Below, piece by piece: positions 31,832 to 61,529 of a stretch of 64,000 bases of DNA (positions within the stretch are counted from its first letter, which is position 1; the number at the start of each line of letters is the position of its first letter). A program made the translations under genes and the position numbers. This stretch comes from a virus: positions 32,001 through 96,000 of the IMG/VR virus record IMGVR_UViG_3300032287_003559; one strand, written 5' to 3'. The notes beneath the pieces were generated by a model, which ran no database searches, had not been told where the DNA came from, and was given only the letters and a program-made list of their open reading frames with translations.

Positions 31832-32700
31832 AATCTCTTAAGACACCGTTGCGCTATCCTGGAGGCAAGTCCCGTGCTTGCGTCAAAATGGATCCATACT
31901 TCCCAGATCTCCGTAACTATGATGAGTTTCGTGAACCATTCTTGGGTGGTGGTTCTGTTGCTATTCACGTTACAAAGAAATATCCTTTTCTTAAGATTTG
32001 GGTAAATGATCTATATGAACCTCTGGTGAACTTCTGGCAACAACTCCAGATGTTTGGTCCTGAACTTAAGGATCATCTTCTACATTTTAAGAGTGCTTGC
32101 CCTGATCCTTTGTCTGCACGGGGATTGTTTGATATTTCAAAAACTATTCTGGAAGATCCTAATACTGGGGATTTTGAAAGAGCGGTAAGATTTTATATTG
32201 TAAATAAGTGTTCTTTTAGTGGTCTGACTGCAAGTTCTTCTTTCTCACCTCAGGCATCTAATTCTAACTTTAGTGTTCGTGGAATTGAAAAACTCCCCGA
32301 GTATGCTAAGTTAATTGAAAAGTGGCGTATAACTAATTACTCTTACGATTACTTGATGGATGGAGACAAGAGTGCTTTTATGTATCTCGATCCTCCCTAT
32401 GATATTAAGGATAATCTCTATGGGAACAAGGGATCAATGCATAAAGGATTTGATCACGATAAGTTTGCTGCCGATTGTGATTCCAACAATATGGATATGT
32501 TGGTGAGTTATAATTCTGACCAACTGGTAAAGGATAGGTTTAAGAATTGGAACGCTGCTGAGTTTGATCTCACTTATACGATGCGTTCTGTTGGTGAATA
32601 TATGCGAGAGCAAAGACAACGTAAAGAACTGCTGCTGTTTAATTATGGAATTGAAGGACTGGTTAAACTCGATCAATCAGACAAAACAGAATCTAATTGA
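31828..32700 (+). CDS. dam: DNA adenine methyltransferase (Dam/D12 class)
   Basis: LRYPGGKS, EPFLGGGSV, YLDPPY motifs. Confidence 0.92.
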   Translation: MKSLKTPLRYPGGKSRACVKMDPYFPDLRNYDEFREPFLGGGSVAIHVTKKYPFLKIWVNDLYEPLVNFWQQLQMFGPELKDHLLHFKSACPDPLSARGLFDISKTILEDPNTGDFERAVRFYIVNKCSFSGLTASSSFSPQASNSNFSVRGIEKLPEYAKLIEKWRITNYSYDYLMDGDKSAFMYLDPPYDIKDNLYGNKGSMHKGFDHDKFAADCDSNNMDMLVSYNSDQLVKDRFKNWNAAEFDLTYTMRSVGEYMREQRQRKELLLFNYGIEGLVKLDQSDKTESN

Positions 32701-34330: not shown

Positions 34331-34379
34331 ATAAAGACGACTATCGTCGGCGTAAGAGGAGCACCTGGTCAAAACCAGG

Positions 34380-34408
34380 TTGACTCCTCCTTTTTTTCTT
34401 GGTATAAT
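34380..34408 (+). promoter_or_regulatory. Sigma70-like promoter overlapping a terminator hairpin
   Basis: TTGACT-17nt-TATAAT. Confidence 0.7.
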
Positions 34409-55102: not shown

Positions 55103-55187
55103 TGTCTTATGAGCGGTGAGGGTCCAAACCTCACATAAGTCTCACCCCTCCTATGCCTCTCAACGATGCACAAACCAGGAGGGCTCT

Positions 55188-55663: not shown

Positions 55664-55735
55664 CCGTTGGTAGTCTAGTGGTCAGGACAGGCAGACAATG
55701 CACTTGGAGTTCGGGTTCGATTCCCGACCAGCGGC
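55664..55735 (+). ncRNA. tRNA-like RNA lacking a canonical anticodon arm
   Basis: Acceptor CCGTTGG/CCAGCGG, D arm GTCT/GGAC, T arm TCGGG-TTCGATT-CCCGA intact; anticodon segment cannot form a 5-bp stem with 7-nt loop. Confidence 0.75.
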
Positions 55736-55753
55736 CAGCAAATTTCTTTTCTT

Positions 55754-56152: not shown

Positions 56153-56180
56153 CTTGCATAAATACTTGAAAAAAAGTATA

Positions 56181-56615
56181 ATGGAAAAACTGTATAAATT
56201 ACTCAGTGATGCACAGTCATCACTTTTTGTTTTATTCCATAAAACTTGGGCATTTCATTGGAATGTTGTAGGTTCAGATTTCACACAACTTCACCAACTC
56301 TTTGGTGGTCAGTATGAAACTATGTTTGAAGAGATTGACCGTCTCTCAGAGCATATGAGATATTTGAATGTAAAACCATTGAGTTCTCTCTCAAGAATGC
56401 TTGAGGTAACTCAAATTAAAGAGGCTGCAAGTTCTACAACAGCAAATAATATGCTTTCAGAACTTCTTGAGAATAATGAAAAGTTTTGTGAAATAATGAC
56501 CGAAATTTCTGAAGAAGCAGAAGCGCAAAAGCAATATGCAACTGCCAATCTATCTCAAGATTTAATGGAATCTCACGGCAAATTTATCTGGCAATTAAGA
56601 GCACATTTACAATGA
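56181..56615 (+). CDS. dps: Dps/ferritin-like protein
   Basis: FHWNVVG..F..LH.LF..QY, IDRLSE, HGKFIWQL motifs. Confidence 0.9.
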   Translation: MEKLYKLLSDAQSSLFVLFHKTWAFHWNVVGSDFTQLHQLFGGQYETMFEEIDRLSEHMRYLNVKPLSSLSRMLEVTQIKEAASSTTANNMLSELLENNEKFCEIMTEISEEAEAQKQYATANLSQDLMESHGKFIWQLRAHLQ

Positions 56616-57950: not shown

Positions 57951-58181
57951 ATGAAAATGAATCAAGAAATTAACGAACTTACGACATTTACAATTGAAGA
58001 GTTTCAGAATGATTTCGATAACCTTATGAATAGAGTAGAAGGTGGAGAATCGTTCATCATATCAAGTGAGCACGGAAATGCAGTGATTGTACCATACAAC
58101 GAAGTGGTGCAGGTATTTCAAGAATCTGGTGTGAGTGATGAGATCATACGAATACACACCGATCACGAAGAAGGTTCTTGA
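57951..58181 (+). CDS. Hypothetical protein with Phd/YefM-like N-terminal fold
   Basis: FTIEEFQNDFDNLMNRVEGGESFIISSEHGNAVIVP pattern. Confidence 0.65.
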   Translation: MKMNQEINELTTFTIEEFQNDFDNLMNRVEGGESFIISSEHGNAVIVPYNEVVQVFQESGVSDEIIRIHTDHEEGS

Positions 58182-58206
58182 CAAAGAGTTCCAGGTCCTC
58201 TACACT
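58178..58206 (+). promoter_or_regulatory. Sigma70-like promoter
   Basis: TTGACA-17nt-TACACT upstream of the tRNA pair. Confidence 0.65.
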
Positions 58207-58220
58207 AGATCTGGTCTTAT

Positions 58221-58292
58221 GGGACTGTCGCCTATGGGTTAAGGCCCACTGCTTATAACGGTGTGAACTGAGTTCAAGTCTCAGCAGTCCTA
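58221..58292 (+). tRNA. tRNA-Ile(TAT)
   Basis: GGGACTG/CAGTCCT acceptor, A73; CACTG-CT-TAT-AA-CGGTG; CTGAG-TTCAAGT-CTCAG. Confidence 0.88.
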
Positions 58293-58296
58293 CTTT

Positions 58297-58369
58297 GCAG
58301 GTTTAGCTCTCTGGCGAAAGCACCGAACTCATAATTCGGCTAAGGTGGGTTCGATCCCCACAACCTGCA
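58297..58369 (+). tRNA. tRNA with CAT anticodon (elongator Met, or lysidine Ile2)
   Basis: GCAGGTT/AACCTGC acceptor; CCGAA-CT-CAT-AA-TTCGG; lacks the initiator GGG/CCC anticodon stem. Confidence 0.88.
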
Positions 58370-58394
58370 CTGGACACTTACCAAAGCGTCCTAC

Positions 58395-58423
58395 TTGACT
58401 TTCAAACATCACTTCTCTATAAT
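58395..58423 (+). promoter_or_regulatory. Sigma70-like promoter
   Basis: TTGACT-17nt-TATAAT. Confidence 0.75.
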
Positions 58424-58445
58424 ACAAAGGTCAACAATCAAAACA

Positions 58446-58661
58446 ATGACTCTCACTGCTAAATTCAAGAAAGACGTTCAAACCCTTCGTGGTGCTGCTA
58501 ACGGCGATTTCTACCTTGATGTAAAGAATCCGAAACTCTACAAAAAGGTTCGTCGTTACTATGAGCAAGAAGGTGTAGTGTTTTCTGGTGATCCTTTGGA
58601 TGATTATGAAATGCTTATGGAATATGTCGCTGCTGATCTTGAGTCTGTTGAGGTTGCATGA
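58446..58661 (+). CDS. Conserved hypothetical protein
   Basis: KFKKD..TL..AANG...LDVKNPKLYKKVRRYYE..GV.F.GD..DDY. Confidence 0.75.
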   Translation: MTLTAKFKKDVQTLRGAANGDFYLDVKNPKLYKKVRRYYEQEGVVFSGDPLDDYEMLMEYVAADLESVEVA

Positions 58662-58927
58662 ACGATCTAGATCTGAATTCGGTAAAGTCAACCAAGACTA
58701 TTATCATTCATGAACGATTTCCTTATCGCTTTGTGCAAAAAGGACATATTGAACTAAACGGCAATCCTGATTTTCGCTTACAAAAAGTGAATGAGTATAC
58801 TAAAAAATACTCTGATATTTATTTGTTTGATAATGGAGATCAAATGCTTCTTGCGATTGAAGATCCCGAATATTCTAAATGGTTAGATCCAGATCGTGTT
58901 CCTTGTTATGTAAAAGATGATGATTAA
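58658..58927 (+). CDS. Conserved hypothetical protein
   Basis: ERFPYRFVQ.G....NGNPDFRLQK...IEDPEYSKWLDP..VPCY; ATGA-coupled. Confidence 0.75.
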   Translation: MNDLDLNSVKSTKTIIIHERFPYRFVQKGHIELNGNPDFRLQKVNEYTKKYSDIYLFDNGDQMLLAIEDPEYSKWLDPDRVPCYVKDDD

Positions 58928-58929
58928 AT

Positions 58930-59330
58930 AGTCTCGGTATGACTTAAAACTAGCCCTGGTCGGGAGCAAACCCCTTATGTCTAAAACAAGTATCTTACGA
59001 TATCTTGGAAACTTTCTCCTTATGATTGGATATCAAACCATGTTATGGGGAGATTTTAAATATGGTTTATTGATAAAAGTTATTGGGGGATTACTCACAG
59101 TACCTTTTGCAATCAAACTTAAACTCTGGGATGTATTATTTTTATGTGCATTCTTTGGGTTTAGTGAGTTTTCAAAACTCATTCAACTTTTCTCAGTTAG
59201 TTAAAACTGAGTGGTGGAGTCAATATGACCCTAGCTAGGTTTCTTGCTTCCTTAAAGAGCAAGTGGTGCGGATGGGACTCTCTCCCGCCTGGTTTCCAAT
59301 TTCCAGTTAAAGAATTGGTGGCGAGCCTGA
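58930..59330 (+). ncRNA. manA-like RNA motif, interrupted by an ORF
   Basis: 5' GTCTCGG..TGAC...GCCCTGGTCGGGA and 3' GGTTTCTTGCTTCC..AAAGAGCAAGTGGTGCGGATGGG...TGGCGAGCCTG recognised from memory as manA-type. Context (after tRNAs, before nucleotide-sugar genes) fits. Not confirmed by a covariance search. Confidence 0.7.
58977..59204 (+). CDS. 75-aa membrane protein nested in the manA-like RNA
   Basis: About three hydrophobic segments; clean ATG...TAA. Confidence 0.65.
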   Translation: MSKTSILRYLGNFLLMIGYQTMLWGDFKYGLLIKVIGGLLTVPFAIKLKLWDVLFLCAFFGFSEFSKLIQLFSVS

Positions 59331-59336
59331 GTTACA

Positions 59337-59365
59337 AAGAGAGGTTGCATAAACCTCTCTTTTTT
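59337..59365 (+). terminator. Intrinsic terminator after the manA-like RNA
   Basis: AAGAGAGGTT...AACCTCTCTT hairpin plus T-tract; overlaps TTGCAT-17nt-TATAAT (59345-59373). Confidence 0.8.
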
Positions 59366-59403
59366 AGTATAATGAAAAAATATATTAATAGTAAAAATAA
59401 AAA

Positions 59404-60222
59404 ATGACTTTATCTCTTTATGGTGGAAGTGGATTTGTTGGAGGTAACTTCAAAAAACTATATTCTGATTATGTGGAGATGCAGAGGGATGAAAGAAAGC
59501 CAAAAACAAAAGATATTTTGTATTTCATTTCAACAGTAGATAACTATAATGTTCACGACAAAATTACACTTGACGTAGACACTAATCTAAAAATTCTCTG
59601 TGAAGTTCTGGATTATTGTAGATCAGAAGATATAACTTTTAATTTTATTAGTTCTTGGTTTGTATATGGCAAAACTCCATACATGCCTGCTAGTGAAGAG
59701 AGTCCATGCTTTCCCACAGGATTTTATTCTATTACAAAAAAATGTGCAGAAGATCTTTTAATTTCTTTTTGCAATACCTATAATGTAAAATATCGTATAA
59801 TGAGATTATGTAATGTTTTGGGTTCTGGTGATCAAAAAGCATCTAGAAAAAAGAATGCAATTACTTGGATGATCGATCAACTTAAGATAGATCATGACAT
59901 TTCTCTATACGACGGAGGATCAAATTGTAGAGATGTGATGCATGTTCAAGATGTTTGTAGGGCAATTAAACTCATTTGCGATAAAGGAAAAACAAACGAA
60001 ATTTATAATGTAGGGTCTGGAAAACCAACTACAATAGGAGAGATTATTTCTTTATCTAAGCATTATCTCAATTCTAAATCTAAAATCAATTATATTGATC
60101 CTCCAGAATTTCATAATAATGTTCAAACAAAAAATTTCTGGATGGACACCAAAAAACTAAAATCCCTTGGATTTGAACCAAAACTTTCTTTAGAATTTAT
60201 CATCAAAGATCTATGTCTGTAA
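59404..60222 (+). CDS. NAD-dependent epimerase/dehydratase (extended SDR)
   Basis: GGSGFVG, FISSWFVYG, YSITK (YxxxK), RDVMHVQD. Confidence 0.9.
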   Translation: MTLSLYGGSGFVGGNFKKLYSDYVEMQRDERKPKTKDILYFISTVDNYNVHDKITLDVDTNLKILCEVLDYCRSEDITFNFISSWFVYGKTPYMPASEESPCFPTGFYSITKKCAEDLLISFCNTYNVKYRIMRLCNVLGSGDQKASRKKNAITWMIDQLKIDHDISLYDGGSNCRDVMHVQDVCRAIKLICDKGKTNEIYNVGSGKPTTIGEIISLSKHYLNSKSKINYIDPPEFHNNVQTKNFWMDTKKLKSLGFEPKLSLEFIIKDLCL

Positions 60223-61529
60223 CTGAAAAAGTATCTAATTTCATTACTTCATTGCAGGAAGATGGAGAAAAATTATTTCCATATCTAGCAAATGAGAGAT
60301 GGAAACGTGGAAATAATGTTTACTATTCTGGTCCATATTGGGACCAAAAAGAAGTGTCTGCTGCAATTACGACGCTTCTAGAAGGTAAATGGCTTCCTGC
60401 AGGAGAAGAAGTAAATAAATTTGAACGACAGTTTTCTAAGAAGTTTGGATTTGATTATTCTGTAATGGTGAACTCTGGTAGTTCAGCCAATCTTGTAATG
60501 ATTTCTGCACTCAAAAAATATTTTGAGTGGAAGGATGGAGATGAAATTATTGTTTGTGTCTGTGGATTTCCAACTACAATTAATCCAATTATTCAGAATA
60601 ACTTAAAACCAGTTTTTGTTGATATAAGTTATGATGATTTAAACTGGAATCTTTCACAAATTAAAGAAAAGATTACAACTAGAACTCGCGCAGTATTCTC
60701 CTCACCAGTTCTTGGAAATCCTTATGATTATGATGCACTTCTTGATATCTGCAATCGTTATAACATTAAGTTGATTGCTGATAATTGCGATAGTCTTGGA
60801 AGTAAGTGGAAAGGTGAATATCTTACAGAACATGCTGTAGCTGCATCTTGTTCTTTTTATCCCGCACATCATATCTCTACAATTGAAGGTGGTATGGTAT
60901 CGTCTAATATTAAAGAAATTGTAGATATTGCCCGTAGTTTTGCCTGGTGGGGTAGGGATTGTTATTGCGTTGGACCACAAAATCTTCTTGAGTGTGGAGT
61001 TTGTGGTAAAAGATTTGACCACTGGCTAGATGGATATGATAAAGTTGTTGATCATAAGTATGTCTTTGGTAATATTGGATATAACTTGAAACCAGCAGAT
61101 CTTCAGGGGTCAATTGGACTTGTACAACTTGAAAAGTTTGATGAGGTCCATCAAAAACGTCGTCATAATAAAGAACGAATTCATAAAATTTTTGAGAATA
61201 TTCCTTTTTGTAGGGTCATTTCTGAAAGATCCGATGCAGAAACTAGTTGGTTTGGTGTTCCTATTGTTTTTGAGTATGATAAACCTGGATTAGTCAAATG
61301 GTTAGAAAATCATAAAATTCAAACACGTAATTATTTTGCTGGAAATATTTTAATGCATCCTGCATATAAACATATTGAACCAGCAAGTAATTATCCAAAT
61401 GCTTCTAAAGTTCTAGATAATGTATTCTTTGTCGGATGTTCTCCAACTATTACAGATGAAATGATTGATTATATCGAAGAAGTTGTAGAAGAATATAAGA
61501 AATCAAATATCCTACATCATCCAGTATAA
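60213..61529 (+). CDS. rfbH: RfbH/DdhC-like NDP-4-keto-6-deoxysugar 3-dehydratase (DegT family)
   Basis: NSGSSANL, DNCDSLGS, SFYPAHHIST.EGG (His at the PLP-Lys position), WGRDCYC, DHKY, GYNLK. Confidence 0.82.
   Translation: MSVTEKVSNFITSLQEDGEKLFPYLANERWKRGNNVYYSGPYWDQKEVSAAITTLLEGKWLPAGEEVNKFERQFSKKFGFDYSVMVNSGSSANLVMISALKKYFEWKDGDEIIVCVCGFPTTINPIIQNNLKPVFVDISYDDLNWNLSQIKEKITTRTRAVFSSPVLGNPYDYDALLDICNRYNIKLIADNCDSLGSKWKGEYLTEHAVAASCSFYPAHHISTIEGGMVSSNIKEIVDIARSFAWWGRDCYCVGPQNLLECGVCGKRFDHWLDGYDKVVDHKYVFGNIGYNLKPADLQGSIGLVQLEKFDEVHQKRRHNKERIHKIFENIPFCRVISERSDAETSWFGVPIVFEYDKPGLVKWLENHKIQTRNYFAGNILMHPAYKHIEPASNYPNASKVLDNVFFVGCSPTITDEMIDYIEEVVEEYKKSNILHHPV

Follow-up and report, generated by a model that had tools for sequence, protein, structure and literature searches.

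The DNA analysed here (the window) is a stretch of 64,000 nucleotides (nt) corresponding to positions 32,001 to 96,000 of IMG/VR virus record IMGVR_UViG_3300032287_003559. It contains three tandem hairpin units followed by an intrinsic terminator and a WcaG-like gene, and two of the units coincide with a match to the wcaG RNA, an orphan riboswitch candidate since 2010 that is found in very abundant marine viruses. The virus record also has a gp43 DNA polymerase that is 84% identical to gp43 of Synechococcus phage S-SM2, a tail sheath protein, NrdA and a 12-tRNA island; the host genome is that of a T4-like cyanomyovirus of the Synechococcus type. The features at the centre of the locus, with the sequence of the units read base by base, are listed below, where S1 and S2 denote the two stems of a unit and P1, P2 and P3 are the labels of the wcaG model.

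59185-59214, + strand: unit 1; S1 AACU (59185-59188) pairs with AGUU (59199-59202) over 4 base pairs (bp), UUU at 59189-59191, S2 CUCAGU (59192-59197) pairs with ACUGAG (59206-59211), UGG at 59212-59214; S2 conserved and covarying, S1 not conserved
59216-59231, + strand: linker hairpin 1 (GGA-GUCA-AUA-UGAC-CC), 3' of a single-stranded UGGUG; 96.6% paired with little variation, and seen in the minimum free energy (MFE) fold
59235-59332, + strand: RF01761 match (wcaG RNA, 103.2 bits), composed of unit 2 (P1), linker hairpin 2 (P2), unit 3 (P3 and pseudoknot) and the tail UGGCGAGCCUGA
59237-59266, + strand: unit 2; S1 AGG (59237-59239) pairs with CCU (59250-59252), UUU, S2 CUUGCU(U) from 59243 pairs with (G)AGCAAG ending at 59263, UGG at 59264-59266; covariation and permutation test
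59271-59288, + strand: linker hairpin 2 (wcaG P2); 95% paired and mostly invariant in 58 sequences
59289-59321, + strand: unit 3; S1 CUGG (59289-59292) pairs with CCAG (59303-59306), UUU, S2 CCAAUU(U) from 59296 pairs with (G)AAUUGG ending at 59318, UGG at 59319-59321; covariation, with the pseudoknot in the 2010 seed alignment
59336-59365, + strand: intrinsic terminator with an 11-bp stem, the loop GCAUA and six U; an equivalent follows the chain of units in 56 loci
59404-60222, + strand: gene of the NAD-dependent epimerase / GDP-mannose dehydratase family (WcaG-like), by protein-family match

Units 2 and 3 and the wcaG RNA

The match to Rfam RF01761 takes in unit 2, linker hairpin 2 and unit 3, has an E-value of 1e-18, lies well above the gathering cut-off of 42 bits, spans model positions 1-98 of 98 and is the single copy in the whole 175-kb virus record. 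The features that mark the family were all observed, namely the full-model score, P1, P2 and P3, the P3 pseudoknot (CYRG with CYNG), two UGGYG motifs (UGGUG at 59264 and UGGCG at 59319, both invariant in 58 relatives) and a T4-like (T-even-like) cyanophage host with a nucleotide-sugar gene, here the WcaG-like gene, on the 3' side. The identity of units 2 and 3 as a wcaG RNA is almost certain. Weinberg et al. (2010, Genome Biol 11:R31, PMC2864571) regarded this RNA as a likely cis-regulator, perhaps a riboswitch, occurring in marine metagenomes and T4-like cyanophages 5' of exopolysaccharide or high-light genes, and the UGGYG motif is already present in the supplement of that study. No later experimental work on wcaG, and no wcaG ligand, was found in the open literature after 2010; two phage genome papers, one of them PMC9964418, give wcaG only as an Rfam match. 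The finding itself is therefore a rediscovery and adds little alone. As far as could be found, what goes beyond the 2010 paper is evidence in favour of a pseudoknot for the motif's first hairpin unit, a coding overlap that explains the loss in unit 1 further upstream, and a promoter set in the terminator without an antiterminator.

The module design is that of an H-type pseudoknot: S1, an invariant UUU, S2, a single U, the 3' strand of S1 (S1'), an A-rich loop and the 3' strand of S2 (S2'), followed by UGGYG and a linker, both linker hairpins sharing the form GGA-stem-CC. A preliminary description of this DNA had reported three units of this layout, each ending in UGG, and every base it named is present; the small hairpins that it placed between the units were found as linker hairpins 1 and 2. 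When both strands of the 64-kb window were searched for UUU, a 6-bp hairpin and UGGYG in succession, three sites only were returned, which are units 1-3, and their co-occurrence exceeds chance. The MFE fold of 59180-59372 (-61.4 kcal/mol; z = -3.1, with 0 of 200 shuffles equally good) recovered all three S2 hairpins, both linkers and the terminator. Tandem Repeats Finder found no repeat in 58000-60500, because the units have a common layout and not a common sequence.

Isolate phages aligned by Megablast to no more than 10% of 58600-60300, and IMG/VR was therefore scanned by pattern for homologues. The scan gave 119 loci, about one third of which were GC-rich chance matches and were dropped, leaving ~84 distinct genuine loci; 58 relatives were aligned over units 2 and 3, and 21 sequences over unit 1. 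Relatedness inflates the covariation counts obtained from such alignments; the switches between pair types are nevertheless real. In the 58 relatives, S2 was 96% paired in unit 2 and 99% paired in unit 3, with 6 of 7 pairs compensatory in each. S1 of unit 3 was paired in 99.1% of cells, with 3 of 4 pairs compensatory and pair types that included UA 39, CG 11 and AU 7 at one position and GC 43, UA 7 and AU 6 at another. The corresponding values for the 3-bp S1 of unit 2 were 77.6% and 2 of 3. An alignment-free test was also applied, in which the exact reverse complement of the 3-mer 5' of UUU was sought in the unit's own loop and the count compared with permutations. Here, unit 3 gave 40 of 41 against 18.2 ± 2.2, and unit 2 gave 33 of 57 against 16.4 ± 2.9, a count reached in 0 of 2000 permutations. 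The S1 of unit 2 switches as a pair, CUC accompanying GAG in all 16 cases and CCU accompanying AGG in 12 of 14.

In the seed alignment of 2010, the pseudoknot line SS_cons_1 pairs CYRG, which directly precedes UUUC in the second hairpin unit, with the CYNG of that unit's hairpin loop (PMC2864571), a pairing that equals S1 of unit 3 exactly. No pseudoknot is marked there for the first hairpin unit (PMC2864571). The pseudoknot of unit 3 is thus known and solid; that of unit 2, which is short and unannotated in the literature, is probable, and would distinguish the RNA seen here from the published model. The covariation claimed in the preliminary description had come from comparing the paralogous units with each other. 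Compared across homologues, every S2 showed covariation; among the S1 stems, those of units 3 and 2 did so, the latter more weakly, and that of unit 1 did not (see below), and the same grading applies to the claim that all three units are H-type pseudoknots.

Compact H-type pseudoknots with a U-rich loop 1 (L1) and an A-rich loop 3 (L3) occur in the preQ1-I and SAM-II aptamers and in telomerase RNA. The wcaG units have the same strand order (S1-L1-S2-L2-S1'-L3-S2'), with an L1 of 3 nt (UUU), an L2 of 1 nt and an A-rich L3 within ~30 nt. They differ in having no sequence similarity or Rfam match to these RNAs, and in being chained, each module being followed by UGGYG. The geometry of the layout places L1 parallel to the purine-rich 3' strand of S2 and has L3 cross the shallow groove of S1. 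Base triples involving UUU in the deep groove of S2 and the A-rich loop in the shallow groove of S1 would be geometrically reasonable, a suggestion drawn solely from the conservation of UUU and AAA.

A further comparison is provided by the glutamine riboswitches (glnA RNA / Downstream-peptide motif), which are likewise small tandem pseudoknotted modules of marine cyanobacteria and T4-like phages. The glnA RNA was found in the same 2010 survey as wcaG (PMC2864571), and wcaG, manA and glnA are present together in one phage (PMC9964418). By contrast with wcaG, glnA RNA has another consensus, binds glutamine and precedes nitrogen genes; the wcaG modules precede a promoter-carrying terminator.

Unit 1, the B-type module and the module chain

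The published wcaG model consists of two hairpin units with one annotated pseudoknot. At the present locus a third unit lies on its 5' side, and a module of a second type (B-type) is found further 5', beyond an open reading frame (ORF) of 75 residues. The features of this upstream region are as follows.

58658-58927, + strand: 89-residue ORF, phrog_481/phrog_19056; the same families lie directly 5' of the chain in other phages
58931-58975, + strand: B-type module, composed of the mini-hairpin GUC-UCGGUAU-GAC, an A-rich tail, CCC-UGGUCG and the linker GGGAGCAAACCCC; 97 distinct copies in relatives
58977-59204, + strand: 75-residue ORF, phrog_2318, hydrophobic; 3' of the B module, with the terminal codons (Gln-Leu-Phe-Ser-Val-Ser-stop) forming the 5' half of unit 1

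In the 21 sequences aligned over unit 1, S2 was 100% paired with 4 of 6 pairs compensatory, but S1 was only 43% paired. Among close relatives with a unit starting ..AACU UUU, at least 3 bp of S1 were kept in 3 of 13 distinct sequences, compared with a control of ~33%, and the window alone has 4 bp. The sequence AACUUUUC.. codes for the final residues (Gln-Leu-Phe..) of the 75-residue ORF, and S1 of unit 1 is not conserved because coding fixes its 5' strand while the loop drifts. First-position modules without an ORF overlap keep S1 in 7 of 11 cases (AAG/CUU, GCG/CGU, AGAG/CUCU and GGG/CCU). Unit 1 is therefore best described as an extra upstream module in which the hairpin and UGGUG are kept and the pseudoknot is, in this lineage, at best accidental; it is unlikely to form in the phage from which the window derives. 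A second, weak wcaG match at 59155-59226 (26 bits) was rejected, being read as unit 1 together with a chance hairpin, since its apparent P1 is a coding palindrome missing in relatives. This palindrome, UGAGUUUU C AAAACUCA at 59155-59180 (+ strand) within the coding sequence of the 75-residue ORF, is itself probably due to chance.

The B module of the window sits between the stop codon of the 89-residue ORF and the ATG of the 75-residue ORF, and continues as CCC-UGGUCG-GGAGCAAACCCC. Its linker GGGAGCAAACCCC carries, 10 nt 5' of that ATG, the only Shine-Dalgarno-like GGAG of the 75-residue ORF. The stretch 58931-58975 gave no Rfam match. Comparison of the 97 distinct copies in relatives revealed a general form consisting of a mini-hairpin GUC-(A/U)YGGNNN-GAC, an A-rich tail, UGGU(C/G)G and a linker. 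The stem is swapped between copies (GUC/GAC in 69, GAC/GUC in 28), and position 2 of the loop covaries with the base 4 nt 5' of UGG (C-G in 79 copies, U-A in 17, other in 1). The possibility that the B module forms a regular helix was dropped, as just this one loop-to-tail pair covaries cleanly. In some relatives that lack the 75-residue ORF, the B module directly abuts unit 2.

Across the 84 distinct loci, UGGYG-type motifs at a spacing of 50-57 nt form chains, distributed by number of modules as follows.

2 modules: 25 loci
3 modules: 24 loci
4 modules: 27 loci
5 modules: 5 loci
6 modules: 1 locus

The repeated modular design proposed in the preliminary description is thus borne out by relatives with chains of 2-6 modules. 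The chain of the window runs from the B module through the 75-residue ORF, which ends in unit 1, to unit 2 and unit 3, and the wcaG motif is part of a longer chain that varies between loci. The 2010 seed already holds overlapping matches 100 nt apart, together with B-type sequences aligned as variants of P1 (PMC2864571), so the modular view extends the published material and does not contradict it. A separate observation was made at loci L018, L037, L050, L057, L058, L082 and L088, where a fourth or fifth UUU-hairpin module lies 3' of unit 3 and replaces the terminator; its tail reads UGGUGG.. and then ..CCGUGUGGUUGGUU...

Terminator, putative embedded promoter and flanking genes

A canonical terminator (stem of 8-14 bp, at least six U) is located 8-26 nt 3' of the last UGGCG in 56 loci. 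In the window, it is overlapped by a putative promoter, which is given below with a second promoter candidate and the gene that follows the WcaG-like gene.

59345-59373, + strand: sigma70-type promoter overlapping the terminator, with the -35 element TTGCAT (59345-59350) in the loop, a 17-nt spacer and the -10 element TATAAT (59368-59373) after the T-run; pattern present in 45 of 58 loci
58395-58423, + strand: sigma70-type promoter TTGACT-17-TATAAT, 11 of 12 matches to consensus, just 3' of tRNA-Met
60213-61529: DegT-family aminotransferase gene, after the WcaG-like gene

The -10 element within the terminator region lies 30 nt 5' of the ATG of the WcaG-like gene. The 45 loci with the pattern TTGNNN-N16-18-TANNNT compare with 5.3% of random windows from the same loci, and a strict form of the promoter was found in 35 of 58 loci compared with 0.6% of random windows. 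In the terminator, the stem is free to covary whereas TTGCAT or TTGACA is retained in the loop, with TATAAT exactly 17 nt further on. The automated promoter scan missed 59345-59373 because TTGCAT has just 3 of 6 consensus matches. The only other consensus promoter nearby is that at 58395-58423.

If the chain acted by alternative pairing with the terminator, cognate sequences would be expected to be complementary. The terminator strands showed no excess complementarity to the cognate chain over the chains of other loci (cognate -8.99 kcal/mol, permuted -8.95 ± 0.16 kcal/mol, and likewise in all four comparisons), which implies that there is no co-evolving antiterminator. The published reading of wcaG is that of a cis-regulator or riboswitch in a 5'-untranslated region (5'-UTR); by contrast, the terminator with its promoter suggests that here the RNA ends the upstream transcript. 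As judged from the sequence, a 3'-terminal placement of the chain in that transcript is probable. A search of the open literature for maps of cyanophage transcript ends yielded nothing usable.

Similar arrangements were observed elsewhere in this genome. Terminators whose hairpin contains or adjoins a -35 element TTGACT, followed at 17 nt by TATAAT, are present at 34364-34408 (+ strand) of the window and at genome position 128768, outside the window, which suggests that overlapping terminator/promoter cassettes are a general phage design. At 56154-56182 (+ strand) of the window there is a further consensus-like promoter, TTGCAT-17-TATAAT; tRNA-Val and tRNA-Met end 0 to ~25 nt before the starts of this sequence and of the promoter at 58395-58423, respectively. 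After several other tRNAs, the sequence TTGAC or TTGGA is seen.

The ORFs 5' of the chain belong to at least five unrelated families of unknown function, phrog_2318 accounting for 21 of 54. Downstream ORFs were surveyed at 57 loci. They include 16 GDP-mannose dehydratases/epimerases, among them that of the window (59404-60222), and 12 cytidylyltransferase-like proteins; the others comprise NTP transferases, mannose-6-phosphate isomerase, glycosyltransferases, a carbamoyltransferase, some 2OG-Fe(II) oxygenases and CpeT. This survey agrees with the published gene association (PMC2864571).

Function of the module chain

The explanation preferred here combines a wcaG RNA bearing an extra module, its placement at the end of an operon and a function as a platform, and is given a rough probability of 0.5. 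A small operon would extend from the promoter at 58395 through small ORFs, the B module, the 75-residue ORF and units 1-3 to the terminator ending at 59365, and the WcaG-like gene would be expressed from a separate promoter built into the 59336-59365 terminator. The wcaG RNA would then be a 3'-terminal and intercistronic RNA of the upstream transcript rather than a 5'-UTR riboswitch, and the chain would not be a ligand-operated switch of the terminator. Instead, it may constitute a modular platform on which several copies of UGGYG, held on rigid pseudoknots, are shown to a trans-acting protein or RNA, and/or by which the upstream transcript is stabilised. The platform or stabiliser function is the more tentative part of this explanation and is put at somewhat below even odds. 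Protection from nucleases, a role suggested in the preliminary description, would be compatible with a place at the 3' end of the transcription unit.

Several observations weigh against operon-end placement and a platform function. About one quarter of the loci have no terminator within 60 nt, and in some of these the chain runs into the next ORF. The -35 element TTGCAT matches the Escherichia coli consensus TTGACA at only 3 of 6 positions. Downstream genes that are coherent in function across families, set beside upstream ORFs from at least five unrelated families, are the classic signature of a downstream cis-regulator, and the operon-end explanation can account for this coherence only by synteny with a sugar-gene island. 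Finally, the one concrete candidate for a trans partner that was checked, the 3' ends of cyanophage tRNAs, was not above chance.

The published proposal of a classical cis riboswitch or attenuator draws on some of the same data and is possible, though less probable than the platform function. Here, tandem pseudoknot aptamers would bind a metabolite, e.g. a nucleotide sugar, and so set the level of read-through to the sugar-nucleotide genes at 59336-59365. Aptamers in tandem occur in other riboswitches, and the conserved nucleotides of the chain are in loops and junctions (UUU, AAA and UGGYG), as is typical of aptamers. The terminator is at a fixed short distance in 56 loci, and the downstream genes are mostly nucleotide-sugar enzymes of different families (at least 34 of 57), which confirms the published association (PMC2864571). 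Such a switch is, however, difficult to reconcile with the absence of cognate complementarity between the chain and either terminator strand, and hence of a covarying antiterminator, and with a downstream gene that has its own conserved promoter inside the terminator. Furthermore, the number of modules varies from 2 to 6, modules also occur a long way from the terminator, where they precede or separate other small ORFs, and no ligand has been found in the open literature since 2010. If transcript mapping bears out the promoter in the terminator, ligand hunts guided by the downstream sugar genes were aimed at the wrong model, and attention should turn to partners that bind UGGYG.

With respect to such partners, a more specific form of the platform explanation may be considered, although it is regarded as doubtful. 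In this form, wcaG would be the tail of a variable chain of 2-6 independent pseudoknot modules of the A and B types, located in small early operons next to the tRNA island, both at their 3' ends and between cistrons. The UGGYG motifs would be shown to a common trans partner, either a protein of host or phage or tRNA CCA ends, and the chain would serve as a multivalent decoy or docking RNA in takeover.

Binding of tRNA ends has also been considered in its own right, with the single-stranded UGGYG tails pairing with the NCCA 3' ends of (uncharged) tRNAs in a T-box-like or sponge mode that would tie the chain to the tRNA island. The pairing of UGGN with NCCA is the T-box principle, and the chain lies ~600 nt past the 12-tRNA island. 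Two 8-nt complementarities to phage tRNA ends were noted, that of tRNA-Pro with the B tail UGGUCGGG and that of tRNA-Ala with the unit 1 tail UGGUGGAG; genome-wide, a match of this kind has a probability of 0.0136 per TGG site. However, when the tails were shuffled with their composition preserved and compared with 178 distinct cyanophage tRNA ends, each of these 8-nt matches had P ~0.1; the most conserved tails, UGGUGCGG of unit 2 and UGGCGAG of unit 3, reach 6 nt only (P ~0.5-0.6), and each tail is partly paired within a linker hairpin. The chain resembles a T-box leader in having a single-stranded UGGY beside a structured element, 5' of an intrinsic terminator and near tRNA genes, but it is without a specifier loop, a T-box sequence or an antiterminator alternative, and its complementarity to cyanophage tRNA ends is not above composition-matched chance. 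This mode of action is improbable.

Equally improbable is a processive antiterminator of the put/EAR type, in which the nascent pseudoknots would bind RNA polymerase and make it resist the terminator with no need for alternative pairing. The EAR element (epsC) acts in this way in a polysaccharide operon, and the position of the chain directly 5' of a terminator and polysaccharide-type genes is consistent with such a role, as is the missing covarying antiterminator, which fits an action on the polymerase. There is, by contrast, no likeness in sequence or structure to put or EAR, Rfam giving wcaG alone; the promoter belonging to the downstream gene makes read-through less needed; and modules that precede small ORFs without terminators are left unexplained.

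That no RNA element is present, the locus being instead a protein-coding 60-residue ORF at 59225-59407 or a set of chance inverted repeats, can be dismissed: this ORF starts with ATG, has GGAG 6 nt 5' of it and spans units 2 and 3, but the ATG is in the loop of linker hairpin 1 and is missing in many relatives (which have AUUAGACCC, AAAACGACCC or AAUCUGACCC there), the ORF would cross the terminator and promoter and has no Pfam match, and neither coding nor chance accounts for dozens of compensatory base-pair changes and the Rfam E-value. The ORF was accordingly rejected as a gene.

Two minor observations concern the tRNA island. An abiF RNA match (RF03085, 47.6 bits compared with a cut-off of 37) is present at 55147-55183 (+ strand) of the window, between tRNA-Tyr and tRNA-Arg; abiF, wcaG and manA co-occur likewise in cyanophage S-CREM1 (PMC9964418). 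At 55664-55736 (+ strand), ARAGORN predicts a tRNA-His with the anticodon ATG that falls below the gathering score of the Rfam tRNA model and may be unusual or degenerate.

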